Position numbers and translations under genes: made by a program | Shown: in pieces, positions 21,872 through 58,580 of the stretch | How positions within the stretch are numbered: position 1 is the first letter of the stretch | Layout: every line of letters begins with the position of its first letter | Assembly: GCA_944388575.1 (NCBI GenBank) | Contig: CALXJF010000003.1 | Coordinates: forward strand, 12,926 to 76,925 | DNA length: 64,000 nucleotides | Source: an uncultured Clostridia bacterium | GTDB lineage: Bacteria > Bacillota > Clostridia > TANB77 > CAG-465 | Direction: 5' to 3' | Notes under the pieces: generated by a model | Database searches by the model: none | Told to the model about the DNA's origin: nothing | The model's input: only the letters and a program-made list of their open reading frames with translations

Positions 21872-21896
21872 TTCTTTCTTGTTTGTTTTTTATGAA

Positions 21897-23888: not shown

Positions 23889-24476
23889 TTATTTTATACT
23901 CATTTTACTATAACCAATATATTTTTTATAACATTTTCTGCATACAGATTTATATGATTCATTTCCACCTATAAAAACTTGTTCTCCATCTGTAACAGCT
24001 TTTGAGTCAACAAAACGCATATTAACAGTTGCCTTAGCTCCACACTCACATATAGTTTTTATTTCTTCAATTTTATCTGCAATTTCCATAAGTGGACCCG
24101 AGCCCTCAAAAAAATTAAGTCTAAAATCTGATCTTAAACCATAACAAATAACAGGAATATCTAGTAAATCTACAACATCACTAAGCTCCCATACTTGCTT
24201 CCTAGTTAAAAAATTAGCTTCATCAACTAAAATACAATCTGGTCTTTCTTTTTCTTTTTTTATATATTCAAAAATATCAAATTCTTTATTTACTGCAATA
24301 GCATCTCTTTGTAGACCTACTCTTGTTGTAATTTTACCCACATCATACCTATTATCTAATGCAGAAGTAAAAATCAACACTTTTTGACCTCTTTCTTCAT
24401 AATTATATGCTACTTTCAACAAATCAATTGTTTTTCCAGACCCCATTGCTCCATATCTAAAATATAACTTAGCCAT
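23889..24476 (-). CDS. tdk: thymidine kinase
   Basis: Walker A GAMGSGKT and C-terminal Cys pairs (CECG..CRKC). 195 aa. Confidence 0.93.
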   Translation of the reverse strand: MAKLYFRYGAMGSGKTIDLLKVAYNYEERGQKVLIFTSALDNRYDVGKITTRVGLQRDAIAVNKEFDIFEYIKKEKERPDCILVDEANFLTRKQVWELSDVVDLLDIPVICYGLRSDFRLNFFEGSGPLMEIADKIEEIKTICECGAKATVNMRFVDSKAVTDGEQVFIGGNESYKSVCRKCYKKYIGYSKMSIK

Positions 24477-34070: not shown

Positions 34071-35102
34071 TTATTCTATTATCATATTTGAATTAAACTT
34101 CATATCAACATTTAGTTTATTATCTGATTTACTTTCACCTGGTTTTAATATATCTAAAGTTTTAGTAACCACCTTATATTTTTTACTTTCATTGTCAAGT
34201 TCAAAAACACTAATTGTATTTTCTAAAGTATTTTCAAGCTGCTTTAATTCGGTTGTAAAATACATTTCTGAATCATTTAAAGTTGAACTTACTTTTTTTA
34301 TAATTCTAAACATTTCTGCGATATGTTGAATATCCTCTCCTACAAAAACTAATTGTGGTTTATCATAAAAGCCTGCATCATTTCTTGCAAAATTCTCATA
34401 AAAATCTGAATATAGTTGAACTTTTTCAGCAAACATATTTTGCCAATCTTCGTTTCTCCTAACCACTTCAAAAACAAAGTTTACTTCATCAACGCCATTT
34501 TTTAAAGTCACCATACCACCTGTTGGCTTAAATTTAACATTATATTTTTTAGAATATAACAATATATTTGGGTTAGTTGATTCAAATGCAGCAACTTTTT
34601 GCATATATGCTATAATAACTTGATTTCCAGCAAGTTTTCTTTTTACAGCATATGCAGGTTTAGTATTATCTGTTGGTTGCCATGATGTAGGTATATTTCT
34701 TTGCTTTAAAATATATGTAGCAATTTTATCCATTGCATACGCTCTATATGAGCTTTTTCCAGCTTCACTTTGAAAATAATAACGAGCAATTACTTTTGAT
34801 TTTGTTAAATCTTCTAGCCATTTTGCAACTTTATTTTGCTTTTTATCTTCCTCAATATCATTTAGTTTACCTCTTAAATCAAGTACTTGAGTAACTTGTC
34901 TAGAAGTTACAAATCCAAATTCATTAACAACTTCTAAAGCCTTAATATGATACTCATTAATATATCCCATATCCATTTTAAATACTACTTGATTTATTGA
35001 TGCAAATCCTTCTTTACCATCAAACACCTTTACCTCATTTTCTCTTACAGCAAAAGGTGAAACAACTGTTTTTACTTCTTTATCACTTACCACAAAAAAC
35101 AC
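34071..35102 (-). CDS. hypothetical winged-helix protein, possibly replication-relaxation (Replic_Relax)-like
   Basis: The N-terminal segment HIKALEVVNEFGFVTSRQVTQVL..VAKWLEDLTKSKVIARYYF..RAYAMDKIATYIL resembles the wHTH layout of that family by eye only. It has its own promoter region and a terminator hairpin (34031-34068). The likely start is the second GTG (35093), 8-9 nt after the AAGGAG RBS. Confidence 0.3.
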   Translation of the reverse strand: MFFVVSDKEVKTVVSPFAVRENEVKVFDGKEGFASINQVVFKMDMGYINEYHIKALEVVNEFGFVTSRQVTQVLDLRGKLNDIEEDKKQNKVAKWLEDLTKSKVIARYYFQSEAGKSSYRAYAMDKIATYILKQRNIPTSWQPTDNTKPAYAVKRKLAGNQVIIAYMQKVAAFESTNPNILLYSKKYNVKFKPTGGMVTLKNGVDEVNFVFEVVRRNEDWQNMFAEKVQLYSDFYENFARNDAGFYDKPQLVFVGEDIQHIAEMFRIIKKVSSTLNDSEMYFTTELKQLENTLENTISVFELDNESKKYKVVTKTLDILKPGESKSDNKLNVDMKFNSNMIIE

Positions 35103-43959: not shown

Positions 43960-44877
43960 TTAAAAATGTATAGTCAAGTTATTTTCAATATCTCCTAATT
44001 TCACATTATAAAAAGTTAACCCTAAAATTTTATTATGATACTGCATATTAACAGGAAAAAATAAATTTTTTACAAAAAATGAGCCTTTAGGAATTTCATA
44101 TTTTGTTGATGATAATATAGTTGTAGCTTGTTTTGTACTTCCACCATCTTGCATATTTAACTCTACATCATTAATACTGTTAAAGCTAAATTGCACTGTA
44201 TAATCATTATTATTAGTAACTTTTAGTTTATAACCTATATCAGTACTTGTCCTATATAATTCGGATATTTCAAATATCAAGCCACTTTGATTTATTGTAT
44301 AATTATGATTAACTACTGTTGGTATTTCATCTTGACTAAAATCAACAGTATATTCATAAGGCTTAGTTTCAATAAAGTTAATATATCTATAACATTTTCC
44401 ATTCTCCATATAATTTATATATGTAATACGATATACACAAACATTGTTTTCTTGAAGAGAATATTGCATAGATACAACAGCTGGAAGTTCACCAACCAAT
44501 TTATTTTGAACTAAATAATCTTCAAAATTATCTCTATTTAAATTATTTTCATTTAAAAAACTAGCATTCATTTTACTATATAATTCATCAATATTTTTTA
44601 TATTAGTTAATCTTTCTACATCTTCAAAATATTGATCCTTTACAGACAAATTTACATCATTATTTGTTTGAGAATCTATATAAACAGAATATTTATTAAT
44701 TCCAGAAGAACTTATAGTCTCTTTTGTTCTTTTTTTATCTACAGATACCACCTCAATTTTCTTTGAGTTCCATATACTTATTGTATAAATAACTACTCCA
44801 ATTAAAACGATACCGATAATACAACAAAGTATAAATAAGATCTTACTTTTTGTTTTATTTTTTTTCATTATATACAC
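43960..44877 (-). CDS. bitopic protein with C-terminal beta-sandwich-like domain
   Basis: N-terminal TM helix. The likely start is MKKNKTK, with an AGGTG RBS overlapping the upstream TAG stop. Confidence 0.45.
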   Translation of the reverse strand: MYIMKKNKTKSKILFILCCIIGIVLIGVVIYTISIWNSKKIEVVSVDKKRTKETISSSGINKYSVYIDSQTNNDVNLSVKDQYFEDVERLTNIKNIDELYSKMNASFLNENNLNRDNFEDYLVQNKLVGELPAVVSMQYSLQENNVCVYRITYINYMENGKCYRYINFIETKPYEYTVDFSQDEIPTVVNHNYTINQSGLIFEISELYRTSTDIGYKLKVTNNNDYTVQFSFNSINDVELNMQDGGSTKQATTILSSTKYEIPKGSFFVKNLFFPVNMQYHNKILGLTFYNVKLGDIENNLTIHF

Positions 44878-45492
44878 CTATTCTAAATAAAAAATCGAAA
44901 AAGTCGTTGAACGTTCATTTAACTTAATTCCAATATAAACATACTCTTCTTCTACATTTGGAACCTTTATTTGACACAAGTACATAGATTCCCCATACGT
45001 AGCTTCATCAAGTAAATATACTGTATCTATTGAAATGTTATTAGGAATATATTCTCCATACATACTTTTAGTTACAAATTTCTCTATGATTTGTTTAGAG
45101 ATTTCCATATATTCATTTTTACTTATATTATAATTATTTGATAAAATGTAATAATAATCTTCTCTGGTAAATTTTATATTATTGTAGTCTACATCTCCTT
45201 TATATGCATTTAATTCTAAATTATATGACGAAAAAAATGTATTTACAATATTATTTAATGACCAAAATTTACCTCGTTCAGTAGTTTCTATTGAATTTAA
45301 TATCATATTATCTATATTTAAGAGACTGCTTTCTATTCTATTATTTTTTTTATCTAACGAATATAAAAAATTAGCTACTACTACTGATAAAATAAGTAAA
45401 GTAGTAGCTAAAATCAATTTTTCTTTTATTGACAACTCTTCTACATTAATAATTTTTTTAAAATTAAATTTCTTAATCTCCAAGAATTTCAC
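44878..45492 (-). CDS. bitopic protein (VirB8/NTF2-like candidate)
   Basis: 204 aa with one TM helix (LILATTLLILSVVVANFLY). It abuts the upstream stop (TAGGTG junction). Confidence 0.35.
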   Translation of the reverse strand: MKFLEIKKFNFKKIINVEELSIKEKLILATTLLILSVVVANFLYSLDKKNNRIESSLLNIDNMILNSIETTERGKFWSLNNIVNTFFSSYNLELNAYKGDVDYNNIKFTREDYYYILSNNYNISKNEYMEISKQIIEKFVTKSMYGEYIPNNISIDTVYLLDEATYGESMYLCQIKVPNVEEEYVYIGIKLNERSTTFSIFYLE

Positions 45493-46554
45493 CTACATAT
45501 CAGAAATATCAAAATCCTGCATTCTTTTATCAAGTTCTGCTCTAGCCTTACTATAACTCATACGAATTTTTTTATCTTTATTTAAAGCACCTTTAACATC
45601 AGAATTCATATTTTCTACAGATTTTACAAAATCCTTTCTGGCTTTTAAAATACCATCAACTCCGCTAGCAATATCAGTTCCTTTTTCAACAGTTTTTATA
45701 GGAAGAGCACCTAATTTATCTCCTATACCTATACCCGTAAGACCACCTTTTATAATATCGCTACCTTCTCCCATAGAAGCACCAATAGTAGCACCAGTAA
45801 CACCTCCAAAAACCGCTCCAATAGTCTCGGCACCACCAGAAAGAGCTTTAAATACTGATTTCCTTCTTTGTTCCTTAAGTTCAAGCATTTTATTTTCATA
45901 ATCTTCATATGCCTTAGCTAAATCAGATTTTTTATTACCACCCGAATTTGCAGAAGAAGCTTTTTCTGCTTTTAGTGCCGCTTCTGCCAAATCTAAATTC
46001 TTTTTATACTCATCCATATTTCCTGTATCTTTAGCTTTATTTGCTTTATCAAGATATTGACCTGAAACACTATCACCAGAACCACTATCTGTTGACTTAC
46101 CAGTAGATCCTTTTTGATTAGGATCAGCAGCGGCAAGTTTCTTAGCTAAACCTGTTCTAGCAATATTCATCTTTTTATTTGCCATGAATGCTCCTCCAAC
46201 ACCTCCAGCTACCTTACCAGCATTATCAAGTACACCCTTAGCTAAATTAGCAGCCATTAGAGTAGTAGCAAGAGATTTCATACCTCCACGCATTCCAGGA
46301 TCTGTAACAGAAGGCTTTACACCAAATATTTTTTTTACTAATTCTTCCATTTTAGATATAGAGGCTAAAGCAATAATAGCCATAAATCCAGTACTAGACA
46401 TATAATCATTTTGTTGTGCCTCAACTACTGATCCACTAGTCATAACATATATTATTAAAACCATTATTATAGCAAATACAAAAGCTTGTATTGATTGTAT
46501 AAATACTAACGTACAAAATTCTCTTAACCATGTACTAAATATATCTTTATTCAC
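45493..46554 (-). CDS. membrane protein with two N-terminal TM helices and a Gly/Ala-rich tail (possible C-terminal half of a VirB6/TrbL-like protein)
   Basis: GTG start 5 nt after a GAGGTG RBS. It is in frame with the upstream VirB6-like ORF and separated from it by TAG plus 5 codons. Confidence 0.45.
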   Translation of the reverse strand: MNKDIFSTWLREFCTLVFIQSIQAFVFAIIMVLIIYVMTSGSVVEAQQNDYMSSTGFMAIIALASISKMEELVKKIFGVKPSVTDPGMRGGMKSLATTLMAANLAKGVLDNAGKVAGGVGGAFMANKKMNIARTGLAKKLAAADPNQKGSTGKSTDSGSGDSVSGQYLDKANKAKDTGNMDEYKKNLDLAEAALKAEKASSANSGGNKKSDLAKAYEDYENKMLELKEQRRKSVFKALSGGAETIGAVFGGVTGATIGASMGEGSDIIKGGLTGIGIGDKLGALPIKTVEKGTDIASGVDGILKARKDFVKSVENMNSDVKGALNKDKKIRMSYSKARAELDKRMQDFDISDM

Positions 46555-46569
46555 TATTTCACCTCTATT

Positions 46570-48120
46570 CTAACTTAAAGATTTACCTAAAAAGTCTAAA
46601 ACAACTATTGCAGGAGCCATTATAGCCAATACAATAATATAGAAAAATCTTTTGGTATATGAAAATAAATACATTATAGATTGCGTTACAAAAATAGCAT
46701 ATAATAAAGCTCCTGTTACTGACACGTCAGAAGGTATCCAACCAGTAACTTCTCCTGTATCATCATCTGTTTCATATGTCCATGCAGACTTTTTAAAGAA
46801 TTCTGCCATTTTTGCCAAAATATCTGCTCTTCCTAAATTTATTTTTTTTCCTTCAACATATTTTTCATGTAAACTTACAATAATTTTATGAAACTGATAT
46901 TCTTTTCTTATTAGAGTTTTAATCTTCTTATTATCGCCTGTAAGTTTAGAGAATAATTCAGAGCTTGAATTCATTTCCTCATTTCTGTATTTTTCTATAG
47001 TTGCATCATCATTTAATTTACTTGGTGCATATGTTTCCAAAAAAGCTTTATCATCCGAACAATCATCCTCTAAGATATGCTTAACATCTGCCGCTAAAAT
47101 TTTAATCGATTGTTCCCCATCATTTTCCAATGTTTCAAACATACCATCAAAATTTTGCCAAAAACTAGTTTTAGTTAAAGCCATTGGTATCCTATATTCA
47201 ACATAATCATTTGTTGCTTCCATCAATTCTGATGCAACTTCAGCTACATTTTCTTGACCAGATTCAAGATAAGCTTTAGCTTCCTCTGTACCATTAAATT
47301 TAGATGCAAGGGCGTCTATGACAGGATCTAAAAATATCCCAGCACCACCAGTTACTAAAGTAAAAAGTGGATTAGGCACTAAATCACCTGCAGTAAACTG
47401 TTCTTGTTGCGTTATAAAATTATCTACTCTATCTTGTGCATTACCATTCCAACTCATACTTTCAAAAGCTTTTTGTACTTTTTCATCATTTAAGGCTGTA
47501 TTTACCATACTACTTGCTACTTCTACCATTTTTTCATTAGCCCATAAAACAAACGACATTAAATTATGTATTAAAAACAATAAAACAATAGAAAACAACC
47601 ATTTTGTCAAAGCTTCTTTATATTTAGCTTTTTCACTTGCAATAGAACTTAGCGCCAACCTTGTAGCCGCTACTCCTACGATTATTGTTAAAAAGCCTGT
47701 AGCAATCGTTAAAATTGTAAAATAAGTATTTCTAATTATATTAGCAAAATCAGTATAGTTTCCTGAATCTGCAGTTTTAAACAAAGAACCATTACTTGCA
47801 TTGAAAAAATTAACATCTAAAATAGGTATTGCATTAAATAAAATTCTATCTGCCCATGGAAAAACACTATCTCCAGATATATATTGAAACAAATTTCCAA
47901 CTATACTTTCAACAAATGAAGCAACAGCATAAATAAAACTTCCAAAAGCATCTAAAACTACTGATTCTTTGGCTTTTTCATTAAGTGCATTCTCTTCAAC
48001 AGTAGTACTAGGAGTATAATCAGAGTTTACTGCCGCATATAATGTAGATGATGTTACTGAAAATACTAACAAAAATATAAAAAATATCATCATACAATTT
48101 TTAAATAACCTTTTATTCAT
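46570..48120 (-). CDS. polytopic VirB6/TrbL/ConG-like T4SS channel protein
   Basis: Signal peptide, several TM helices and a large extracytoplasmic loop. It lies immediately downstream of VirB4, as in Tn916/ICEBs1-type systems. Confidence 0.55.
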   Translation of the reverse strand: MNKRLFKNCMMIFFIFLLVFSVTSSTLYAAVNSDYTPSTTVEENALNEKAKESVVLDAFGSFIYAVASFVESIVGNLFQYISGDSVFPWADRILFNAIPILDVNFFNASNGSLFKTADSGNYTDFANIIRNTYFTILTIATGFLTIIVGVAATRLALSSIASEKAKYKEALTKWLFSIVLLFLIHNLMSFVLWANEKMVEVASSMVNTALNDEKVQKAFESMSWNGNAQDRVDNFITQQEQFTAGDLVPNPLFTLVTGGAGIFLDPVIDALASKFNGTEEAKAYLESGQENVAEVASELMEATNDYVEYRIPMALTKTSFWQNFDGMFETLENDGEQSIKILAADVKHILEDDCSDDKAFLETYAPSKLNDDATIEKYRNEEMNSSSELFSKLTGDNKKIKTLIRKEYQFHKIIVSLHEKYVEGKKINLGRADILAKMAEFFKKSAWTYETDDDTGEVTGWIPSDVSVTGALLYAIFVTQSIMYLFSYTKRFFYIIVLAIMAPAIVVLDFLGKSLS

Positions 48121-48147: not shown

Positions 48148-50151
48148 TTAATCTCCTGAATTTCTTCTGTTTCTCATTTCTATCATTTTACTTAAGTTTG
48201 TTTCAACAAATTCAAATTCTCTTTGGGTAGGTCTAATGGCAATAACAGCAGATGAATAACCTATTTTTATTAATCCTTCACCACGTGTACAAGTTATAAG
48301 GAAATTCGCCTCTCCTTCACTTAGTTTAAATACTTCTTGCAAGTATTCTATTTCTGATTTATCCTGAGCCAAAAATAATTTTGTTTCTGCAGAAGTTAAA
48401 ACTGCCTGTACTGACTTATTCTCGTAGAAATCTTGGAATTTTTGTGATACAACAGTAAGTGAAACATTTCTTTTTCTAGCACGTCTAGCCATTGTATTCA
48501 AGAAATCAACAGCCTCTGGATAAGCAAGTAACATCCATGCTTCATCAACAAGAACACGTTTACTTCTAGCTCTAGATTTATCTTCACTATTTTTCTTTAC
48601 ATATTTTTCCCAAATCCAAGAAAGTAATATTTGTTGTGCAAGAGGTCTTGCAAATCTCTCCTCAAGTTGTGAAATATTTATATTAATAAATAAAGAACCA
48701 TCTTGTAATTCAAATGTAGATTGTCCATCAAAATATGCCATTTGACCATCAAATTTTCTTACATATTGTCTCATAACTTTCATTAAATAATCATAGTGAA
48801 ATTTGTAAGTTTCATTATCATTTGTTTGTGCTTTTTTTTCTAATCTATCATACCATGACCCAATTGTTGGCATTTCTTTTTTCTTCTTTGTTACATTAAA
48901 ATCAGTTCCAACATTATCTCCTATACTTCCAAAAGAGTCTTCATATAATGAATTAGGATCATTAGTTATTCCTCTTGCAGAGTATTCTTCAGCAGCAATT
49001 TCTGCAATTATCTGTTTTGTAAGTTCGTTAACTTCTTCTGATTTCGTTGCACCTCTAGCCATTGTAAGTAACGCTTGAGTAACATCTTCAACTTTATTTT
49101 CTACATTTAATACATATCTATCTCTACCTGTAATTTCATCTTTTTCAATTTCTGTTTCTATATCAAATATATTTATTATTGTATTACTATTTGGACTTAT
49201 ATTAACATTAATTCCTCTTAAAGCTTCTGCAACTACGACATATTCACCTTCGGCATCAAGAACTAGGTTTTCAACTCCCATCAAAATAGCAGATCTTGCC
49301 ATAATAGTTTTTATTGTAACAGATTTACCAGCACCAGATTTACCAAATATAATCATATTATAATTTGTTAAAGAATTATTAAAATTATCAAATATAACTG
49401 GCAAGCCTGTTTGTTTATTTATACCTATAGGCACACCTGTTTCATGCCCTGCATCCGCATTAACAAAAGGAAATACAGTAGCCATAGAACCTCTATCAAA
49501 TGTATGTTTCCTAGAGATTTTATTAGTATTAAGAGGTAAATTAGATTTAAAGCCTTCTTCCTGTAAAGCCCATGCAGTCTTTAATCCAAGTAAATTTTTT
49601 GATGCTTCCATAGCTATAAGTTCAGACATTTTATCTAATTCATCTTTTGTATACGCAAACAATGTACATATAATCGTAGCGTCAAATAATTTATTATATC
49701 CTGCAGCAATTTGATCTCTCAAACTTTCCGCTTCTGCTTGCTTAGTAGCTAGTACTGATTCTCTATTTATGTCTCCTCTATCATGAGCAACATATCTTTC
49801 AGATTGTAACTCAACTATTTGTTTATTAAGCTCATTTTGTGATTTAGTTTCTGAAATAGGTGTAATAAATACAGAAGTATTAACATCTCCAAACTCATAT
49901 ATTCCAGATAAAAAATATGGAAATGTAGCTTGTCTAGGAATTGTAGTTAAATAAAAAGTTCTTGCAAATCTTGACACTTTTGAAAATATCTCTAAATAAT
50001 CATAGTGAGTAGCATCAATCCCAGAAGGTGCTAACAGATCCTTTAAAGTTGATTTATTAACCTCTAATGAACTTTCAACTAAATCATTAGAAGTAATCAA
50101 TTCCTCTCTTACTTCTTGATTCACATTTTTTTTATTCTTTTTCTTTCCCAT
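48148..50151 (-). CDS. virB4: VirB4-family T4SS ATPase (TraE/PrgJ/ConE/TcpF-like)
   Basis: 667 aa. Walker A FGKSGAGKS and Walker B RVLVDEAWMLL (the DEAW pattern typical of VirB4). The N-terminal domain is the VirB4 type. Confidence 0.85.
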   Translation of the reverse strand: MGKKKNKKNVNQEVREELITSNDLVESSLEVNKSTLKDLLAPSGIDATHYDYLEIFSKVSRFARTFYLTTIPRQATFPYFLSGIYEFGDVNTSVFITPISETKSQNELNKQIVELQSERYVAHDRGDINRESVLATKQAEAESLRDQIAAGYNKLFDATIICTLFAYTKDELDKMSELIAMEASKNLLGLKTAWALQEEGFKSNLPLNTNKISRKHTFDRGSMATVFPFVNADAGHETGVPIGINKQTGLPVIFDNFNNSLTNYNMIIFGKSGAGKSVTIKTIMARSAILMGVENLVLDAEGEYVVVAEALRGINVNISPNSNTIINIFDIETEIEKDEITGRDRYVLNVENKVEDVTQALLTMARGATKSEEVNELTKQIIAEIAAEEYSARGITNDPNSLYEDSFGSIGDNVGTDFNVTKKKKEMPTIGSWYDRLEKKAQTNDNETYKFHYDYLMKVMRQYVRKFDGQMAYFDGQSTFELQDGSLFININISQLEERFARPLAQQILLSWIWEKYVKKNSEDKSRARSKRVLVDEAWMLLAYPEAVDFLNTMARRARKRNVSLTVVSQKFQDFYENKSVQAVLTSAETKLFLAQDKSEIEYLQEVFKLSEGEANFLITCTRGEGLIKIGYSSAVIAIRPTQREFEFVETNLSKMIEMRNRRNSGD

Positions 50152-50173: not shown

Positions 50174-51610
50174 TTAAATAATCAAATCGTCTTCAGATGA
50201 ATCTGTACTCTCCTTCTTTTCTGGTTCATTATTAACATTTGAATTTATATTATTTTCTGTATCAAAGCCTAATCTATCATCTAAAACATCAGAAGAAATA
50301 ATATCTGAATTATTATTTAGTTTATTTTCAATAGATGATTTATCATTCTTATCTTCTTCTAACGATCCATCCTTATTATCTTTAGAAATATCTTGTGAAT
50401 TCTTTGTAGTTTCATCAACAGAATCTACACTCTCTAGAATTCTTTTTTTATCTTCTTTATATTCTTCAACCAATATTGTATTTGCTTTTTTCTTAACATC
50501 ATCCGGTAAATTTTCGTTTTTAACAATTTCAGCTGCTTGTTTACTTATTCTATCCACTATATCCAACTGCTCAACTTCTGGAGAAATATATGTTCCCTCC
50601 TTAATAGCTTTTTTCATAGCATCTAAAGCTCTATATTGAGCCTCAATATTTATTTGTTCTTGGAGTTTTTCTTGTTTTTTCATAAACACATCTTCTGAAG
50701 TAGAATATAATCTATAAAATCCAGATTGTATAGCTTCTCTTACACTTAAGAAACCTTTATCATCTCTATTATACGCTGTATACAGTAAATCTGCCAGCTC
50801 GTTAGAAGACAATACTTCACCAGAAACAGAACAAGCCGAAAGAGCACTTATAATAGTTTGAGCTCTAGTTAATAATTCGTTATAACATATATTAACCAAT
50901 TCTTCTTTAGTAAAACTTTCCGCAGAAGTAATTTCAGTAGTATAATAAGAAACTAAAACGTAAAAATTTCTTTGTAATAAGTTTTTATTTAAGCTCAACC
51001 TCTCAACATAATTAATAATATCTTCAGCATATTCATATACATTTAGTACTCTTTCTCTTCTTTCTTCAGCTACTCTTATATCCTCTTCATTGGCATCAAA
51101 TTGTTCAATTAAATTATTATATTTCTTATTCGCTTCTTCATATTCTTCTCTTATACTACTAGCATTTGCTTTATAAGTACTAATTGCAGACTTTAAATCT
51201 ATATTTTGAGCTTGAACATATAATTGGATTGGATATCTTAATGTATTTAAAAAAGTAATAAATCCTTCTTCAACAGATATTTGTTCAACATCAGACATAA
51301 GGTCATAATTAATGCCTTTACATTTTATAGCCATAGTAAACTTTGTACCATCACTTTGAACAATCATATTATCTAAAATTCTATCAAACTCCATAAATTT
51401 AAAAATATCTTCTTTAGGAGTTTCTTTCGTATTACTCTTTACATTACCTTTTGTACTTTTTTTAGAATTTGACATATTTCTATCATTTTGATTTTTCACA
51501 TCTATACTAGCATTCCTCTTTTGTTTATTTATTACTATCAAAAAAATTCCTCCAGCAAGTAATAATATTCCTAACAATATAGCAGGAAATATTAAAGCAG
51601 TTAAATCCAT
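50174..51610 (-). CDS. TM-anchored 478-aa protein; the region after the anchor resembles a VirB4 N-terminal domain without an ATPase; acidic C-terminus
   Basis: N-terminal TM helix. FDRILDNMIVQSDGTKFTMAIKCKGINYDLMSDVEQISVEEGFITFLNTLRYPIQLYVQAQNIDL parallels, by eye, the N-terminal pattern of the adjacent VirB4. No Walker motifs. Confidence 0.35.
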   Translation of the reverse strand: MDLTALIFPAILLGILLLAGGIFLIVINKQKRNASIDVKNQNDRNMSNSKKSTKGNVKSNTKETPKEDIFKFMEFDRILDNMIVQSDGTKFTMAIKCKGINYDLMSDVEQISVEEGFITFLNTLRYPIQLYVQAQNIDLKSAISTYKANASSIREEYEEANKKYNNLIEQFDANEEDIRVAEERRERVLNVYEYAEDIINYVERLSLNKNLLQRNFYVLVSYYTTEITSAESFTKEELVNICYNELLTRAQTIISALSACSVSGEVLSSNELADLLYTAYNRDDKGFLSVREAIQSGFYRLYSTSEDVFMKKQEKLQEQINIEAQYRALDAMKKAIKEGTYISPEVEQLDIVDRISKQAAEIVKNENLPDDVKKKANTILVEEYKEDKKRILESVDSVDETTKNSQDISKDNKDGSLEEDKNDKSSIENKLNNNSDIISSDVLDDRLGFDTENNINSNVNNEPEKKESTDSSEDDLII

Positions 51611-51611
51611 T

Positions 51612-51959
51612 TTATTTTCCTCCTCTGTTTAAATTATATACATATATTTTTTTCTTTCTACCAAAAGTCAAAAATCTAAATGAAATATCGCTTAAGTTCT
51701 CTCCGCCAGCTTTTCTAAACTTTCCCATAGCAGGAATATCTGGTATTTTTAAAGTTCCAAATCCAAAACCAATAGCTCCAAAAATCACTGTAATTATTAT
51801 TCCAGGTACAAGTCCTAAACCAAATAAAGAGCCCAAATACCAAATTCCTGCACCAACTAAACCGATAGCAACTGTAGTAACAAATGATTTTATAGAAAAA
51901 ATATATAGAAGTCTTGTCTCTCCTTTTACACTACGTGGAACATAGTATGTTTTACCCAT
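51612..51959 (-). CDS. PrgI/VirB3-like small membrane protein
   Basis: 115 aa. YYVPRSVKGETRLLYIFSIKSFV followed by two TM helices. Located just upstream of the VirB4 module. Confidence 0.6.
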   Translation of the reverse strand: MGKTYYVPRSVKGETRLLYIFSIKSFVTTVAIGLVGAGIWYLGSLFGLGLVPGIIITVIFGAIGFGFGTLKIPDIPAMGKFRKAGGENLSDISFRFLTFGRKKKIYVYNLNRGGK

Positions 51960-51977: not shown

Positions 51978-52637
51978 TTACTTACTAAAGACCTGTGTCA
52001 CAATTGTCGAAATAAGATTTAAAAAACCTACCGCGCAAAATGACATAATAATCCCTAATATAAATTGTCCTGATTTTGCTTTTAAATCAGCTTTACCTTT
52101 TGCACCAGTAAATATATATCTTAATCCAATATATAAAACAGCTCCTATTGCTAAAAAATTAGCAACATTAGTTAAAGTATTAAAAACTTTTGCTACTACA
52201 GTTTCATAACTTGTTGCATTACTTGGATTTAATACTAAATATCCATCTTGAAATAACAAATTCCAAATAGATGTCCAGCCAAAAAAGAAAATACAAGCCA
52301 CTAACAAATTCATTAAACTTTCTTTTACATCACCTTTTGCTTCAAAAGAACCAAACATATACTTTATTCCTAAAAAAATTGTTACAGTAACAATGACAGT
52401 GGTTCCAATAACGTTAACCATATCAGAAAGTGTTTTAATAACCTCAGAAGCTCCAGATGCAACAGTTTCCACATTTTCAACATTACCAGGACCAATTGTA
52501 TTGTCATATCCATCCCCAGAATACCAACTATTGGCATCTGTCCAAAAACCCGCATACACAAATGATTTGCTAAGAAAAAAAACAAAAATTAAACTAAATA
52601 GAAATATATAACTCCTCTTATTTTTTATCACAACCAT
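51978..52637 (-). CDS. tandem-duplicated VirB2/TrbC-like pilin module protein (two pilin-like repeats in one polypeptide)
   Basis: Signal peptide. Repeat 1: ..TIFLGIKYMFGSFEAKGDVKESLMNLLVACIFFFG... Repeat 2: ..VLYIGLRYIFTGAKGKADLKAKSGQFILGIIMSFCAVG... Both match the core of the three upstream paralogs. Confidence 0.55.
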   Translation of the reverse strand: MVVIKNKRSYIFLFSLIFVFFLSKSFVYAGFWTDANSWYSGDGYDNTIGPGNVENVETVASGASEVIKTLSDMVNVIGTTVIVTVTIFLGIKYMFGSFEAKGDVKESLMNLLVACIFFFGWTSIWNLLFQDGYLVLNPSNATSYETVVAKVFNTLTNVANFLAIGAVLYIGLRYIFTGAKGKADLKAKSGQFILGIIMSFCAVGFLNLISTIVTQVFSK

Positions 52638-52675
52638 TCCTCCATACTATTTTTTATATTATATCAATAACACAC

Positions 52676-52712
52676 AAAAAAGTCTACGCTTTTAACAAAA
52701 AAAACGTAGACT
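52676..52712 (-). terminator. intra-cluster hairpin terminator/attenuator between the pilin genes and the rest of the operon
   Basis: Minus strand: AGTCTACG, a 16-nt loop, CGTAGACT, then TTTTTGTGTG. It is followed by an extended -10 (TGATATAAT). Confidence 0.5.
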
Positions 52713-52761
52713 TTCTTTCTTTGCAATATTAATGAAACAAAAAAATAACAAATATGTAATA

Positions 52762-53139
52762 TTATACTATTTCAAAAAATACTCTTTTTACAAAATCTAT
52801 TACAAAAGTAGCTCCAAAGAAAATAACTATACCAATAAGCATAGGAAGTAAACTTTTCTTTATATCTGCTTTTTTGTCAGCATTTGCAAAAATATATGTC
52901 AAACCAATTATAAAAATCCCAATAAAAGCTGCTACTCTAGCTACATATATAAAAGTATTCCAAATTCTATTAAATTGTTTTGTAAAAAGTGGATCGGCAT
53001 TGTCAGCATCTTGTGCGATATTATCAATTTCAAAACCACTACCAAGTGGTTTCCTATCCGCAAAAACAAAAGTTTGAAAACTTATAAATATACTTATAAA
53101 AATCAATATAACTATCGATAATAATACATATCTCTTCAT
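52762..53139 (-). CDS. VirB2/TrbC-like pilin paralog 3
   Basis: 125 aa: signal peptide, hydrophilic segment, TM, loop ANADKKADIKKS, TM. Confidence 0.55.
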   Translation of the reverse strand: MKRYVLLSIVILIFISIFISFQTFVFADRKPLGSGFEIDNIAQDADNADPLFTKQFNRIWNTFIYVARVAAFIGIFIIGLTYIFANADKKADIKKSLLPMLIGIVIFFGATFVIDFVKRVFFEIV

Positions 53140-53151
53140 TTTCTACACCCT

Positions 53152-53529
53152 TTACAAAATTTCATCTGCAATTTTATATATCAAATCTACAAAAGTTGCT
53201 GTTCCAAAAACCAATACCAGACCTAAAAAAACATAGCCCATACTTTTTTTTATATCAGCCTTATCAGAAGAACTCGCTAACATATAGCTTATACCTGTAA
53301 AAATAATACCACAAAATGCAACCACTTGGACAATAGTTTTTGCAGTTGTCCATACACTAGAGGAAATCTCATGTATTTTATCAACTTCATACTCACCAGT
53401 GTCATCAATTTGACTGGACAATGGTTCATCATCAGCATATACCATTGGTATAAACATTAGACTAACTAATAAAAATATAATTAAACTCTTTAAAGTTACT
53501 TTTTTTGAATTACTCATTATATTCTCCAT
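53152..53529 (-). CDS. VirB2/TrbC-like pilin paralog 2
   Basis: 125 aa with the same topology. Loop ASSSDKADIKKS. Confidence 0.55.
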   Translation of the reverse strand: MENIMSNSKKVTLKSLIIFLLVSLMFIPMVYADDEPLSSQIDDTGEYEVDKIHEISSSVWTTAKTIVQVVAFCGIIFTGISYMLASSSDKADIKKSMGYVFLGLVLVFGTATFVDLIYKIADEIL

Positions 53530-53537
53530 ATTAAAAA

Positions 53538-53921
53538 TTATATATTTATATCTGCAGCTTCATTAAATATATCCATTAATAATTGAACAACAGTTGATGC
53601 ACCAAATACAAATATAGCACCTACAACTAAAATTACAGTTTGTTTCTTTATATCAGCTTTTGCATCTGCTGAGGCAAACATATATCTTATACCTGCAAAT
53701 ATAATTGCTACAAAAGCTATTATTTGTGCTACAACGGTAACAGTACTCCATATATTTTTTGCTAAACTAGTAACATTTGTTATTTCATCTCCTGCCTCTG
53801 GATACTCAATAAGAACTCCATCACCAGCAAAAACAGCTGTTCCGCAAGTAGCAGAAACTATTGTTAAACATAACAATAACACAGGTATTAATCTTAATAT
53901 AATTTTTTTAGATTTTTTCAT
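53538..53921 (-). CDS. VirB2/TrbC-like pilin paralog 1
   Basis: 127 aa. Signal peptide ending ..AVFA|GD. Core FAGIRYMFASADAKADIKKQTVILVVGAIFVFG. AAGGAGG RBS. Confidence 0.55.
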   Translation of the reverse strand: MKKSKKIILRLIPVLLLCLTIVSATCGTAVFAGDGVLIEYPEAGDEITNVTSLAKNIWSTVTVVAQIIAFVAIIFAGIRYMFASADAKADIKKQTVILVVGAIFVFGASTVVQLLMDIFNEAADINI

Positions 53922-53955
53922 ATTTTTTCCTCCTTAAGTTATATATTACTTTTTT

Positions 53956-53983
53956 ATTATATCAATAAATAACAAAAAATCAA
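53956..53983 (-). promoter_or_regulatory. candidate promoter of the pilin/T4SS-like operon (extended -10)
   Basis: Minus strand reads TTGATT, 16 nt, then TGATATAAT, about 35 nt upstream of the first pilin ATG. Confidence 0.5.
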
Positions 53984-54082: not shown

Positions 54083-54619
54083 ATGAAATTTTCTTTACTT
54101 TTTAACTGGTTTATATATAATAATAGTATGAGCAAAAAAATATTACCTATTATATTATTAATAATTTTTACAATTTTATTTCAAAATCCAAATAAATCTA
54201 CTAATATTGGGTACATTTACCCTACATATGAACATAACATTTCATCTTATTTTGGATACAGAAATATATTTGGAAGTAGAAGTTTTCATAACGGAATTGA
54301 TTTTCCCGTACCTCAAGGTACTCCAGTATACTCAACACAAACAGGAATAGTAAAATATTGTTCTTTTATAAAAGGATATGGAAACTCCGTTATAGTACAA
54401 AATATTGATGGAAATACTGCTTTATATGCTCACTTAGAAGAAAATTATATTGTAAAAGTTGGACAAGAAGTAAATCAAGGAGAGCAAATAGCAATTGTAG
54501 GACCAAAATATCTATCAAATGGTATTTTAAATGGATTAACAACAGGACCGCATCTTCATTTTACAATATATAATAATGATGGAAATGCAATAGATCCATT
54601 ATCTCTTAATTTAAAATAA
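54083..54619 (+). CDS. M23-family (LytM-type) peptidoglycan endopeptidase
   Basis: HNGIDFPVPQGTPV .. GYGNSVIV .. LYAHL .. GPHLHFTIY. Divergent from the pilin operon. Confidence 0.85.
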   Translation: MKFSLLFNWFIYNNSMSKKILPIILLIIFTILFQNPNKSTNIGYIYPTYEHNISSYFGYRNIFGSRSFHNGIDFPVPQGTPVYSTQTGIVKYCSFIKGYGNSVIVQNIDGNTALYAHLEENYIVKVGQEVNQGEQIAIVGPKYLSNGILNGLTTGPHLHFTIYNNDGNAIDPLSLNLK

Positions 54620-55490: not shown

Positions 55491-58400
55491 TTATGGTTTA
55501 TTTATACTTAAATTACGCCTTAATACATAATAAATTTCCCCATTATATTTAATTTGTGCATAATTATTATTAGGATTTCCTATAGATACAAGCTCTACTT
55601 TTGTTCCTTTTTCTACAGGTTTACTACCTCCAGAATTAGCTAAAATACTTTTATGTATAGAAACATAAGAGTTACTTATGTATCTATATTCTGTATTCTT
55701 TGAAGAACTATTATCCTTCTTCTTTTCTAATATATCTCTAGCAGTCATTTTTGTACCTGTATTTGGTGATTTTTCTGATAAATATTTATCACTCATATAA
55801 CCATTTGTATTTGTACTATCTATACTTATTTTAGTCCAACCATTTGCATCTTTACTTTCAGCATAAACTTTCGTTCCTTTATTTAAAGTAGTTATAATAC
55901 TTCCTCCAGGTGATGATCTTAAATTAACACTATTTCCTGTCACATATCTATTTGCTTTTATAGTTTTTACAGGATTATAACCACTTGAAGAACCTGAACT
56001 ACCTGAACCACTCGAGCTACTTGAAGAACTAGAACTACTATTTGATGAGTTTGAGTTTGAACTACTACTTGAAGTAGTTGTTTTCTTTTCTTTCTTTATT
56101 GTTTTTTCTTTTGTATCTGCTAAATACTTAGCTTCTACATATAAATTTTCATTTCCATTATATGCAATTCTAGCATATCCATTGGTATATTTCTCAAATG
56201 TCCAAACAGCAGTACTTCTTGGAATAGTAGTAAACTCAGAATTTCCCTCCGCATCAGATGCGATCTTTAATGAATCAGTATTTACATATCTTGTCTCTTT
56301 TATTTCTTTTGACACCTTAAGTCCAGCTTCTTGATTTTGTAAAACATATGGACTTTTTATTTCTATAGTTGTTTCGGCTGAAATATTGTTATCAGCATGA
56401 ACTACCATTTTTATTTTACATTTTCCTTCATATACAGTAGTAATAACATTATTAGTATTTCCATTACTTAAATATGTATAATTTAAAAGCGATGTAGCGT
56501 CTACAAAATCCCCACTTATCTTACCATTAACTAGTCCCACTTGTTCTAAAAACTGTTGATATTCTTCTGATTCTACAACACCTTCTTCTGTAGGATCTAA
56601 TTTTGTACCTTCACTTAAAGTAAATATTGGATTAAAACTAATTGTTTCGCCTGGTGCTACTTCATATTCTTTTTGAACAAAAGATATCTTTTTTATAGTT
56701 TCTATTACTTTTCCCACGGCTTCAAAATTTGTCTGAGCTACAATATCTTCAGATTCTTCTGTTCCTCTTGAATTCTTAGTTTTATCATATTCCATTTTTA
56801 AAATACCCGTACCATTAACACCTTTTTTTAGCTTAATTTTATTACCACTTACATCAACTACATCTTCATCTTCACATGATATTTTTACATTTTTCTTTAA
56901 AGCTTTATATACATCATCCTCTACTATAGTTGGATCTGCTACTGGATCATAGATTTTTCCAGACTCCATAAAAAATATTGGATTAAATTCATAAGACTTA
57001 TATTTATTTATATCAAGCTTATTTTCGCCAACATACTCTTTAGCAAATGAAATTGCTTTTACATTTCCTATACTTGATTTTAATTTTATTTTTGTTTCAA
57101 CTTTTGGGTTAGACTTAGAACTTGCTATTAAATCAGTTGTTTTATTTGGTTTTAAAGCAGTAATAGTACCATTTTCTATTATAAAATCCTCTGTATTAGA
57201 TAATTCTAAATTTAAATCATCTATTGAAGCTGTAACTGGTGATATATTTAATGTAAATTCATATCCAACTCCAACTTCTAATGGATAATCTTTAACATAA
57301 TCTTTTTCTTTTTCAGGATCATCAGGATCTTGAATAGCTTTAATTTTTTGAATAGACTTTTCTTTATCATAATTACTACCCGCATCTGATTCTACAGTAT
57401 TATTCAATACTGTCTTATCAATATAATTACCTGAGGTTATTTTTATTATATCTTGCATACCAGCATAATCTACAGTGATAGTAGCAGCTCCATCTTTTAA
57501 ACCTTTAACTGTTATTGTATTTTCATCATTTGATATTTCAATTATATCTTTATTATTATTTGTAAATTTAGCGGTTGAGCCATAATCATTTAGAATAGAA
57601 ATTATACCATCTTTATCAACTTTATATGAACCATCATTTTGAACTATTGTTTGAGTAGTATATGAAGAAATTTCAGAAGTTTTTACTTCTTTATATTCTC
57701 TTTCAGCTCTTACTTCAACATTAACCTCGGTACTTATTTCAGGATTAGATACTGAAATTATTTTCACTACTGTATTTCCATCTGATTTACCTTTAACAAC
57801 TCCCTTTGTATTAACAGTAGCAATATCTTTATCTTCAATTTCAAATTTTACTCTAGAATTAGCAGCAGATTCTGGTAGTACAGTATAACCTATAGTCACA
57901 TCTTCTTGTACATATGTAAGTACATTTTCTTCATCTACAATTATCTCTTCAACAGGAGTAGCAACTGAAATTCTTAACGTAGCTTTTACCTTTGGATTAT
58001 CTTTTAAACTTGCTGTAATAACGGCTGACCCATTTTCTAAGGTTTTAACTTTACCATATTCATCCACAGTACAAATATTTTCTTTACTACTTTTCCACTC
58101 TACTTCAGAATCAACAATTGATTGTGCCTCATCTTGAAGTTGAAAAGTTTTTTCTTCATCTTTACTCATTACAATTGTACCTTTAACTTGTGCATTATCT
58201 TCTTCATAGTAAATTGATACCTTACCTGGAATTACAGTTAAATTATAACTTGCAGTAAGTCCATCTACACTTACAGTGATTGTTGTTGTTCCCCTTGAAA
58301 CACTAGTTACTCTTCCTTTTTCATCTACTACTGCAACTTCTGGGTTACTACTACTCCAAACCATTTCAGCTTTAGAACTAATTTTCTTTTTGAGTGGAGA

Positions 58401-58580
58401 GTATCTTAGACTTTTCCCAAGTGAAAGGGTTTTCTCTTGAACTGAGAAACTCAACTCTTTCTGTGAAGTTATTTCTGTTGCCATAACACTTGCTATATTA
58501 ATAACACCAGAAAAATTCATGGTTATTAAACATACTACTAAAAGACATGCAACAATTTTATTTAATTTCAAGATACTCAC
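55491..58580 (-). CDS. 1,029-aa secreted surface protein: multiple Big_2 Ig-like domains, poly-Ser linker, two C-terminal SH3b-like wall-binding domains
   Basis: Signal peptide. Big_2 pattern WSSSNPEVAVVDEKGRVTSVSRGTTTITV (several copies). TTSSSSSNSNSSNSSSSSSSSSSGSGSSGSSSG linker. SH3b-like NSVNLRSSPGGSIITTLNKGTKVYAESKDANGWTKI. Confidence 0.75.
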   Translation of the reverse strand: MSILKLNKIVACLLVVCLITMNFSGVINIASVMATEITSQKELSFSVQEKTLSLGKSLRYSPLKKKISSKAEMVWSSSNPEVAVVDEKGRVTSVSRGTTTITVSVDGLTASYNLTVIPGKVSIYYEEDNAQVKGTIVMSKDEEKTFQLQDEAQSIVDSEVEWKSSKENICTVDEYGKVKTLENGSAVITASLKDNPKVKATLRISVATPVEEIIVDEENVLTYVQEDVTIGYTVLPESAANSRVKFEIEDKDIATVNTKGVVKGKSDGNTVVKIISVSNPEISTEVNVEVRAEREYKEVKTSEISSYTTQTIVQNDGSYKVDKDGIISILNDYGSTAKFTNNNKDIIEISNDENTITVKGLKDGAATITVDYAGMQDIIKITSGNYIDKTVLNNTVESDAGSNYDKEKSIQKIKAIQDPDDPEKEKDYVKDYPLEVGVGYEFTLNISPVTASIDDLNLELSNTEDFIIENGTITALKPNKTTDLIASSKSNPKVETKIKLKSSIGNVKAISFAKEYVGENKLDINKYKSYEFNPIFFMESGKIYDPVADPTIVEDDVYKALKKNVKISCEDEDVVDVSGNKIKLKKGVNGTGILKMEYDKTKNSRGTEESEDIVAQTNFEAVGKVIETIKKISFVQKEYEVAPGETISFNPIFTLSEGTKLDPTEEGVVESEEYQQFLEQVGLVNGKISGDFVDATSLLNYTYLSNGNTNNVITTVYEGKCKIKMVVHADNNISAETTIEIKSPYVLQNQEAGLKVSKEIKETRYVNTDSLKIASDAEGNSEFTTIPRSTAVWTFEKYTNGYARIAYNGNENLYVEAKYLADTKEKTIKKEKKTTTSSSSSNSNSSNSSSSSSSSSSGSGSSGSSSGYNPVKTIKANRYVTGNSVNLRSSPGGSIITTLNKGTKVYAESKDANGWTKISIDSTNTNGYMSDKYLSEKSPNTGTKMTARDILEKKKDNSSSKNTEYRYISNSYVSIHKSILANSGGSKPVEKGTKVELVSIGNPNNNYAQIKYNGEIYYVLRRNLSINKP

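Follow-up and report, generated by a model that had tools for sequence, protein, structure and literature searches.

Until 2025, the type IV secretion systems (T4SSs) of Gram-positive bacteria were viewed as systems without VirB2 pilins. In the nomenclature review of December 2025 (PMC12857230), Gram-positive T4SSs were stated to lack VirB2 and VirB5, Patescibacteria being the sole exception; the patescibacterial T4SS was described as chromosomal and essential, with an array of six divergent VirB2-like pilins, and chromosomal T4SSs with VirB2 pilin arrays were attributed to the Patescibacteria (candidate phyla radiation, CPR) by Wang et al. 2023, as cited in that review. Patescibacterial VirB2 arrays, 441 in number, were found to comprise 2-11 genes with a mean identity of 25%, mostly without a relaxase (PMC12102498). 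Similarly, 8-15 virB2 paralogues with hypervariable regions were reported beside a conserved virB4 in Anaplasma (PMC3556328). A preprint of December 2025 (10.64898/2025.12.18.695078) described PrgF of pCF10 as VirB2-like and essential for conjugation, with VirB2-like candidates in 95% of 174 Gram-positive plasmid classes. Here, VirB2 homologues recognisable by sequence are described from classical Clostridia, in which an array of five VirB2/TrbC modules, two of them fused in one chain, adjoins VirB3-like and VirB4 genes on contig CALXJF010000003.1 of an uncultured Clostridia bacterium. The whole stretch analysed (64,000 nucleotides, positions 12,926 to 76,925 of the contig) is called the window, and all coordinates refer to it.

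The pilins are probably VirB2-family subunits of a VirB4-powered, monoderm-type T4SS, chromosomally fixed and vertically inherited, in which they would form a multi-subunit conduit or pilus. This reading is built on the observed family membership, protein architecture, synteny, contrast in conservation, strain-level patches and conserved hairpins. The first-pass annotation of the window had regarded several divergent pilin paralogues as unusual for any T4SS and Gram-positive conjugation as pilus-less. The former was overstated, given the arrays of Patescibacteria (PMC12102498), Anaplasma (PMC3556328) and Bartonella; the latter stands as the textbook view (PMC12857230, PMC8557374) but has lost ground now that VirB2-like proteins are reported (10.64898/2025.12.18.695078). 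VirB2 in Gram-positive bacteria and VirB2 arrays, each alone, are not new. As far as the literature found goes, what is new is their combination in true Clostridia as a syntenic core-genome system, together with an ancient family of fused double pilins (modules D1 and D2) and hypervariable patches at the strain level.

The pilin array and its fused D1-D2 pilin

The array comprises four open reading frames (ORFs), all on the minus strand and spanning 53921-51978, which together encode five VirB2/TrbC modules. They lie where the first-pass annotation had placed them, and its count of five modules was borne out by Pfam matches and by comparison of the modules with each other.

53538..53921, minus strand: pilA, single-module VirB2/TrbC pilin of 127 amino acids (aa); PF04956 42.5 bits; signal peptide (..AVFA/GD), acidic variable segment, first transmembrane (TM) helix, loop ADAKADIKK, second TM helix
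53152..53529, minus strand: pilB, single-module VirB2/TrbC pilin of 125 aa; PF04956 28.7 bits and PF18895 27.1 bits, each above its own cut-off
52762..53139, minus strand: pilC, single-module VirB2/TrbC pilin of 125 aa; PF04956 33.4 bits
51978..52637, minus strand: fused double pilin, 219 aa from ATG; PF04956 44.6 bits; signal peptide, conserved A/DFWxxAxSWY motif, variable segment, D1 (~aa 56-130), external linker of ~20 aa, D2 (~aa 145-219)

The gathering score of PF04956 (TrbC/VirB2, Pfam; 27.9 bits) was exceeded by 4/4 proteins, and pilB was additionally above the cut-off of PF18895 (T4SS_pilin; 26.6 bits). By these profile matches, and with VirB3-like and VirB4 genes adjoining, the four proteins are members of the VirB2/TrbC family with a pilin layout, which agrees with the identity first proposed for them; some relatives of the genes bear the NCBI name 'TrbC/VirB2 family protein'. 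The motifs quoted in support of that proposal (..AFVAIIFAGIRYMFASADAKADIKK.., ..FLGIKYMFGSFEAKGDVKES.. and ..YIGLRYIFTGAKGKADLKAKS..) were found in the pilins as given. Pairwise identity among the five modules was 20-36%, pilB being 36% identical to pilA, and BLASTP between the genes returned E-values of 1e-8 to 1e-23, which indicates old paralogues and no chance resemblance. For pilA, 360 homologue clusters were recovered. The three single-pilin genes are spaced by 8-12 nucleotides (nt), with 8 nt between pilA and pilB.

The paralogues had been ascribed a signal peptide, then a variable and acidic segment, then a hairpin of two helices around a charged loop, and this layout was recovered by hydropathy and by AlphaFold2 (AF2) models. 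Each pilin carries a predicted Sec signal peptide, in which an n-region rich in K precedes a hydrophobic core and cleavage is expected at a site of the V-x-A type; a site of the signal peptidase I type was predicted in 150/156 family members by a heuristic of our own. The signal peptide is followed by an acidic segment of 25-35 residues and by two hydrophobic helices with a Lys-rich loop between them. The loops of the five modules read ADAKADIKK, SDKADIKK, DKKADIKK, EAKGDVKES and AKGKADLKAKS, with invariant Lys residues. The hydropathy scan gave a signal peptide and two TM helices for the single pilins, and a signal peptide and four TM helices for the fused protein. The AF2 model of pilA, with helices at 46-82 and 85-125, agrees with the hydropathy, and that of the fused protein has helices at 56-95, 98-128, 145-176 and 179-217; both models are of moderate confidence (predicted local distance difference test, pLDDT, of 67 and 71). 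When a profile of 41 single pilins was compared with PDB sequences, the sole relevant match was VirB2 of Agrobacterium (8cue), with both helices aligned at a weak E-value of 0.036; the profile of the fused pilin matched nothing relevant among the PDB sequences.

The PF04956 match of the fused protein falls in two stretches which, together with its four helices, confirm the claim that two modules are joined covalently, in tandem, in the product of the fourth gene. Its ribosome-binding site GGAGGA (52643-52638) directly abuts the ATG at 52637, so that the start is more likely the GTG at 52631; the resulting 217 aa agree with homologues of 216-217 aa. Since both hairpins are expected to be N-out/C-out, the linker of ~20 residues would lie outside the membrane, and the fusion is topologically consistent. 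The conserved fusion limits subunit packing, as the C-terminus of D1 must lie within a linker of ~20 residues from the N-terminus of D2.

The fused pilin had been taken for an oddity, a view that its distribution does not bear out. In an exhaustive profile search of 1.84 billion representative proteins, 108 members of the fused family were found at E<=1e-30 and 505 at E<=1e-10, and 93 homologue clusters matched at full length; by these counts the fused pilin is an old and widespread family and no peculiarity of one genome. In the literature on VirB2, no description of a fused VirB2 was found. Many members are 280-630 aa long, with the D1-D2 core at the C-terminus of a long N-terminal extension without a Pfam match. 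These extensions ahead of the core (100-450 aa) may be artefacts of gene calling, as may the relative P0251 (450 aa), in which four VirB2 modules, seen as four stretches in both Pfam pilin families, lie in one chain.

Species-representative genomes scanned with an alignment of the fused pilin yielded 55 loci, 54 after duplicate removal, in ~50 species-level metagenome-assembled genomes (MAGs). In a tree of 219 modules from these arrays, D1 (51/54 members) and D2 (49/49) each formed a clade across species, with identities of 44-49% within either class and 21% between D1 and D2. The single pilins were not sorted by position in this tree, which points to birth-and-death turnover. In the three most distant loci, an unfused D1-like gene takes the place of the fusion. 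The most distant clusters, L060 and L061 (also L059), lack a fused gene and contain four single pilins, of which the last is D1-like (PF18895 35 bits, PF04956 27.1 bits), and such arrays probably represent the state before the fusion arose.

The number of paralogues in relatives, a question raised by the first-pass annotation, was surveyed by searching all loci iteratively with a module hidden Markov model (HMM) derived from the five modules. Nearly every locus has 1-4 single pilins followed by one double, plus a pilin-like module in the protein after VirB4. Among 38 complete arrays, two singles and one double were the most frequent composition (25 loci), followed by three singles and one double, the type of the window (7 loci), and one single and one double (4 loci); four singles with one double, and two singles with two doubles, occurred in one locus each.

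Chromosomal setting, conservation and strain-level variation

The window contains the housekeeping genes for RsmH, IleRS, GluRS, RNase J, thymidine kinase, enolase, iPGM, TPI, PGK, GAPDH, PGI and SHMT, and the cluster is flanked by glyA-pgi on one side and by the glycolysis genes (gap, pgk, tpi, gpmI, eno) on the other. The G+C content of the window is 23-36%, mostly 25-31%, from which that of the cluster (~26-31%) is not distinct. Neither an integrase, a transfer RNA (tRNA), an Rfam family or att-like repeats, nor phage genes, were found in the window. The host records of all 55 loci are titled Clostridia, Clostridium or Bacillota MAGs from the gut of humans, rabbits, ruminants and chickens, and include Clostridium sp. 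CAG:465, CAG:921 and CAG:1219. Their common gene order is (glyA)-pgi-(traX)-SSB-M23-pilins-fused pilin-VirB3-like-p478-VirB4-p516-p353-p204-p305-hydrolases, where p478 and its like denote proteins by length, and of the 37 loci whose flanking sequence was long enough, 28 have pgi upstream.

Over the 54 loci, the median identity to the window was highest for VirB4 (83%), followed by glyA (79%) and pgi (72%), whereas the single pilins (41%), the fused pilin (41%) and the downstream envelope proteins (29-33%) were far more divergent. The ratio of nonsynonymous to synonymous rates (dN/dS) of VirB4 was 0.047. When 72,556 plasmid records were searched for DNA near-identical to the cluster, nothing was returned, and tblastn of pilA against plasmids was equally without a match. 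By its synteny and by this pattern of a conserved motor beside divergent pilins, the cluster fits a vertically inherited chromosomal core system with fast-evolving exposed parts, and does not fit the integrative and conjugative elements (ICEs). The first-pass reading as part of a conjugation element was accordingly given up, as the cluster is chromosomally fixed, conserved across the lineage and not mobile. Compared with its nearest annotated relatives, which are clostridial plasmid clusters of the same local gene order with one sub-threshold pilin-like gene, it may derive from a clostridial conjugation module that was domesticated and gained pilins. The system behaves like a core organelle and not like a mobile element, and its evolutionary pattern points to surface exposure. 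Within the gap-pgk-tpi-gpmI-eno block, a gene for an AAA_14/DUF4143 ATPase (29709-30908, minus strand) was observed between pgk and tpi, which is absent there in L066.

Variation between strains was assessed by comparing the window with contig L063, from a near-identical strain. The VirB3-like protein, p478 and VirB4 were 99.4-100% identical in aa sequence, with a synonymous divergence (dS) of 0-0.03, whereas pilA, pilC and the fused pilin were 87%, 85% and 93.5% identical, respectively, with dS values of 0.16-0.28. The differences lie in discrete patches at 53721-53840 (pilA), 53003-53062 (pilC) and 52343-52522 (fused pilin), which encode the segments right after the signal peptides, and pilin divergence is limited to these N-terminal segments. 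The nonsynonymous divergence (pN) in the patches was 0.29 for pilA and 0.17 for pilC, compared with 0.02-0.03 in the remainder of the same genes. The suggestion that the N-terminal segments are the diversifying part of the pilins was therefore upheld. Raised synonymous divergence beside near-identical flanking genes indicates that divergent alleles were imported by recombination. The ratio of pN to synonymous divergence (pN/pS) was found not to exceed 1 in the patches (range 0.24-0.83; 0.6-0.8 for pilA and pilC, 0.24 for the fused pilin), so that positive selection is not demonstrated, and relaxed constraint with recombination also fits. The pattern points to N-terminal segments that face the environment and would otherwise be hard to explain.

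Adjoining T4SS genes, transcription signals and substrate

The genes that accompany the array in the cluster are the following:

51612..51959, minus strand: VirB3/PrgI-like small membrane protein, 115 aa, two TM helices; PrgI PF12666 E=2.3e-3, under the cut-off
50174..51610, minus strand: p478, 478 aa, one TM helix, like the VirB4 N-terminal domain ('TraC-like'); NCBIfam VirB4_plasma, positions 93-272, E=7.7e-6
48148..50151, minus strand: VirB4-type ATPase, 667 aa; P-loop_TraG, AAA_10 and DUF87; NCBIfam CD1110 family 216 bits, Mbov_0397 family 194 bits; Walker A GKSGAGKS
46570..48120, minus strand: p516, polytopic, 516 aa, with an embedded pilin-like hairpin at aa 127-190; T4SS_pilin E=1.8e-3, a weaker sixth module
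43960..46554, minus strand: three conserved bitopic proteins of 353, 204 and 305 aa, one N-terminal TM helix each; no family match; syntenic, 22-51% identity
37123..43944, minus strand: cell-wall hydrolases of 509 aa (NlpC/P60 and C39_2) and 1242 aa (NlpC/P60 and GDSL), with a 508-aa bitopic protein between them; profile matches
54083..54619, plus strand: M23 peptidase, divergently transcribed; PF01551 90 bits
54686..55339, minus strand: single-stranded DNA-binding protein (SSB) with two OB folds, PRK05813 type; NCBIfam 298 bits against a cut-off of 171

The fused pilin gene is separated by 18 nt from the PrgI-like gene, which is followed by the gene like the VirB4 N-domain and then by the VirB4 ATPase. 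The VirB3-like gene lies between the pilins and VirB4 in 50/54 loci, with a median identity of 61%, and the order pilin-VirB3-like-p478-VirB4 is kept in 50-51 of the 54. VirB4 appears to be split, with p478 corresponding to positions 93-272 of the VirB4 model of mycoplasma ICEs and the 667-aa ATPase to the remainder. Homologues of p478, which was found in 51/54 loci, carry PF26593 (TraC-like), and the split is kept in 51/54 loci and also in clostridial plasmids. VirB4 is the only Walker-A protein of the cluster.

In p516, the hairpin is followed by an ectodomain of ~280 aa and two C-terminal TM helices, and its pilin-like module was detected by our module HMM at nearly all loci. The same hairpin (aa 87-154, T4SS_pilin E=8e-5) was found in the protein after VirB4 of a C. 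botulinum plasmid (L002 10911-13505), and the counterpart of p516 is duplicated up to three times in relatives. This protein could be VirB6-like, as an enlarged form of VirB6, or could act as a pilin-anchored adhesin or tip protein, and the three bitopic proteins are candidates for VirB8-like or scaffold positions. Large hydrolases equivalent to those of the window lie at the cluster end in relatives. The M23 gene is linked to the array in 38/54 loci, including loci with a different upstream context, and the SSB gene in 32 of the 37 loci having enough upstream sequence, including loci without pgi or traX. PDB sequence searches with the 516-aa and 305-aa proteins, and with a 343-aa protein described below, gave nothing useful. 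Outer-membrane core components were not seen in the cluster, which is by its gene content a monoderm-type T4SS.

Three further surface-related observations were made in the window. A gene of the TraX family (59778-60515, minus strand; PF05857 105 bits) lies between pgi and SSB, as in 23/54 loci. TraX of the F plasmid acetylates the N-terminus of F-pilin. N-acetylation of the pilins after signal-peptide cleavage is conceivable by analogy, although the TraX family is widespread and its linkage perhaps coincidental. Between traX and SSB, a secreted protein of 1029 aa (55491-58580, minus strand) is encoded that combines Big_2 repeats with a Ser-rich linker and SH3 domains; it is possibly a cluster-linked adhesin, and in relatives L003-L005 its place is taken by a shorter SH3 protein. 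Two large surface proteins with SLH and Big_2 domains (19230-23603, minus strand), probably S-layer associated, lie in the stretch of highest G+C content in the window (0.355 at 22001-24000), and any T4SS conduit would need to cross such a layer.

Signals that could divide the array into transcription units were located as follows:

53956..53983, minus strand: promoter-like site upstream of pilA, TTGATT, 16-nt spacer, extended -10 TGaTATAAT; 10/12 matches plus TG extension in a consensus scan; consensus match only
52658..52686, minus strand: second promoter-like site, before the fused gene, TAGACT, 17-nt spacer, TGaTATAAT; overlaps the 3' arm of the hairpin below; consensus match only
52676..52717, minus strand: terminator-like hairpin between pilC and the fused pilin, 18-bp stem and U-run, -17.7 kcal/mol

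A hairpin of <= -12 kcal/mol before a U-run was found at the corresponding position, ahead of the fused gene, in 56% of 43 related loci, compared with 0.2% of dinucleotide shuffles (overall, 56-63% of loci and 0.2-8% of shuffles), and its stem sequences differ from locus to locus. The hairpin may be a terminator or a stabiliser. An element of 30 nt is present in two copies that are 87% identical, at 52652-52681 and 53950-53979, and spans the extended -10 of both promoter-like sites, which suggests that the pilA unit and the fused-pilin unit are co-regulated.

As regards the substrate, the gene of interest lies two genes past the cluster end:

34071..35102, minus strand: 343-aa protein; Replic_Relax PF13814 E=6.5e-4, sub-threshold

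This protein has 1014 homologues, the best 120 of them at 73-94% identity, and a few reach PF13814. To our knowledge, Replic_Relax is not an established relaxase class. A coupling protein was absent from the window by tblastn and family scans, and a clear relaxase was likewise not matched there, which makes a DNA substrate conjecture for this genome. A first conclusion, that the system is without a coupling protein, was softened when an 844-aa VirD4-type coupling protein was found to adjoin the 343-aa homologue at the end of the T4SS cluster in L067 (10001-13634) and L068. In the window, the glycolysis genes come after the 343-aa gene, in place of a coupling protein gene. VirD4-type genes are located elsewhere in L070-L074, and homologues of the 844-aa protein at 58% identity occur in low-GC gut contigs, so that a coupling protein may exist elsewhere in this genome. 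With the linked SSB gene and the VirD4-type and Replic_Relax-like genes at the cluster end in relatives, the substrate is most likely single-stranded DNA (ssDNA).

Proposed assembly, alternatives and related systems

In the proposed mechanism, each pilin would be exported via Sec and its signal peptide removed, after which it would sit in the membrane as an N-out/C-out helical hairpin with the Lys-rich loop in the cytoplasm. Extraction of the pilins, and their polymerisation into a short pilus or tube, would then be the work of the VirB3-like protein together with the split VirB4 and a VirB6-like platform; the resulting structure would cross peptidoglycan opened by the hydrolases (M23, NlpC/P60, C39-like, GDSL) and then the S-layer, with ssDNA as the presumed substrate. 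The single pilins, as a unit of their own (promoter, pilA-B-C, terminator), would supply abundant shaft subunits whose acidic N-terminal segments face outward and diversify via allele exchange between strains. The fused D1-D2 pilin would be transcribed with the machinery genes and would be a low-copy specialised subunit, a covalent heterodimer that may serve as base or tip adaptor, and its N-terminus may bear extra domains, as in the relatives of 280-630 aa.

Several points weigh against this mechanism. Pilus formation is read here from genes, the major and minor subunit roles from operon position, and the promoter and terminator calls from consensus or energy matches; comparable hairpins also lie between single pilin genes in other loci, so that they are possibly stabilisers and not terminators. 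When both AF2 models were compared with the PDB by Foldseek, no solved pilin was matched significantly, and the best matches were at chance level (V-ATPase c subunits for the fused model, E=0.7; DgkA for pilA, E=3.4); the sequence match to VirB2 in the PDB is weak as well. Short helical hairpins at a pLDDT of ~70 discriminate poorly, and the fold searches are therefore uninformative and not negative. The pN/pS values below 1 and the missing coupling protein count on the same side, and no Gram-positive conjugative pilus has ever been imaged (10.64898/2025.12.18.695078). It was considered unlikely, nevertheless, that these VirB2 homologues form no extended pilus and are components of a membrane- or wall-embedded T4SS channel; the imaging record and the uninformative fold searches would suit such a channel, yet the N-terminal hypervariability is hard to explain unless the segments face the environment, and a terminator-bounded unit of single pilins fits a subunit required in large amounts. 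A similarly low probability was assigned to a co-opted, non-conjugative T4SS that serves, as in Patescibacteria, a dependent or contact lifestyle (nutrient or DNA uptake, attachment) and not DNA export. The chromosomal location, machinery conserved lineage-wide at housekeeping level, a VirB2 array about as divergent as the patescibacterial ones (20-36%, compared with a mean of 25%; PMC12102498), the lack of a relaxase or coupling protein in the window, reduced genomes described for related uncultured gut clades (PMC11680825) and one homologue on a contig of 1.44 Mb are all in keeping with this explanation, but the VirD4-type and Replic_Relax-like genes that adjoin the cluster in L067 and L068, and the linked SSB, favour DNA handling. 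The complete glycolysis and the aminoacyl-tRNA synthetases encoded in the window carry little weight either way.

A somewhat better, still minor, chance was given to antigenic or receptor variation as the main purpose of the paralogues, which would be exposed in turn or as a mixed coat and so evade host immunoglobulin A, phages or competitors, a role proposed for the VirB2 arrays of Anaplasma and Bartonella (PMC3556328, PMC12102498). Besides these precedents, strain hypervariability confined to the exposed N-terminal segments, with raised dS as a mark of allele import, and the birth and death of single pilins (1-4 copies per locus) agree with it. Alternate expression here is argued against by pilA, pilB and pilC lying 8-12 nt apart behind one promoter-like site, D1 and D2 are distinct conserved classes (44-49% identity within class) that suggest fixed structural roles rather than interchangeable variants, and pN/pS remains below 1. 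For the single pilins, such variation can be reconciled with the pilus or conduit reading, of which it may form a part. By contrast, an ordinary ICE or plasmid segment with pilins for its own transfer is very improbable. The closest annotated VirB4 relatives (40-42% identity) do lie on plasmids of C. beijerinckii and C. botulinum in the same local order, and some relatives have a VirD4-type coupling protein, but the cluster has housekeeping genes on both sides and neither an integrase nor a tRNA or att repeats, most of ~50 species share one insertion context, VirB4 is more conserved than pgi, the G+C content is uniform, and near-identical DNA was missing from all 72,556 plasmid records. Least credible of all is that holins, bacteriocin-immunity proteins or other small membrane proteins without kinship to VirB2 only resemble pilins here. 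A sub-threshold Pfam holin match of pilA (E=0.23) covers the signal-peptide region only, whereas 4/4 proteins pass the TrbC/VirB2 gathering score, no holin match was found by Pfam gathering scores or in PHROGs, phage genes are not nearby, and the pilins are tightly linked to VirB3-like and VirB4 genes in 54 loci; the possibility, which the first-pass annotation had itself named, is effectively refuted by the PF04956 scores, this linkage and the PHROGs result.

Going beyond the VirB2-subunit reading, it is proposed tentatively, as a possibility and not the expected outcome, that a lineage of uncultured, small-genome gut Clostridia domesticated a conjugation machine as a core surface organelle, the Bacillota counterpart of the essential patescibacterial T4SS. 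Its heteropolymeric VirB2 pilus would have shaft subunits diversified by strain-level allele exchange and an architecture reliant on the ancient D1-D2 pilin (with four modules or N-terminal display domains in relatives), and would serve chromosomal DNA exchange or cell or host contact and not the transfer of an element. The host lineage is frequently met in the guts of humans and animals, so that an exposed and variable pilus could have a bearing on recognition by the immune system, adsorption of phages and gene flow within the microbiome.

Compared by description, the patescibacterial systems are among the most similar. They share a chromosomal, lineage-conserved, monoderm-type T4SS with VirB3, VirB4, VirB6-like protein and hydrolases, tandem divergent VirB2 genes near virB4 (2-11 genes at a mean identity of 25% there, 20-36% identity here), the lack of an obvious relaxase in most clusters, and uncultured hosts with small genomes. 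They differ in that the host here belongs to a gut lineage of the Clostridia (Bacillota), while PMC12857230 calls the patescibacterial case unique among monoderms, and in the conserved fused D1-D2 pilin, which is unmentioned in PMC12857230 and PMC12102498. Another lineage-conserved pilin array in uncultured, low-GC, small-genome gut Clostridia is that of the Tad (type IVc) pilus, described from the gut clade TANB77 (PMC11680825), where the assembly genes are followed by seven pilin-like genes; that system, with a CpaF/TadA ATPase, a TadB/C platform and type IV pilins of one TM helix, is a different machine without homology to VirB2.

Tandem VirB2 paralogues beside a virB4 copy are also found in Anaplasmataceae (8-15 copies, PMC3556328) and in Bartonella Trw (as cited in PMC12102498), with a conserved VirB4 and with VirB2 as the component most diverse between strains, its diversity lying in short hypervariable regions. 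These hosts are diderm Alphaproteobacteria, whose T4SSs translocate effectors or serve adhesion and have outer-membrane components; a fused pilin is not described for them.

PrgF of pCF10 and the plasmid candidates resemble the pilins described here in being small 2-TM proteins with a charged loop in a Gram-positive T4SS operon, and were proposed to form, by polymerisation on a VirB6 pentamer, a conduit across the wall; support for the pCF10 pilus comes from modelling, mutagenesis and labelling, not imaging (10.64898/2025.12.18.695078). The present locus fits this recent view that Gram-positive T4SSs may build pili. PrgF-type proteins show next to no similarity to VirB2 in sequence and were recognised through topology and AlphaFold, whereas direct Pfam VirB2 matches and long, predicted cleavable signal peptides are seen here; only one candidate per plasmid gave a pilus in modelling there, three to six modules are conserved together here; and those systems are plasmid-borne and conjugative, the present one chromosomal and fixed. 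The plasmid clusters of C. botulinum (p12/29) and C. beijerinckii (p1), which hold the closest annotated VirB4 (40-42% identity), show the same order of a small 2-TM protein, VirB3-like protein, p478-like protein, VirB4, large protein with a pilin-like module and C39 hydrolase, but have a single pilin-like gene below the Pfam cut-off, no fused pilin, and genes annotated as hypothetical.

Finally, the T-pilin VirB2 of Agrobacterium and TrbC of RP4 share PF04956, a long signal peptide, the two-helix hairpin and a basic loop with the pilins of the window, although sequence identity is very low, with the match to the solved Agrobacterium VirB2 (8cue) at E=0.036 only. T-pilin and TrbC are cyclised head-to-tail. 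In the clostridial system, the peptide linker of the fused D1-D2 pilin would replace one intermolecular contact.

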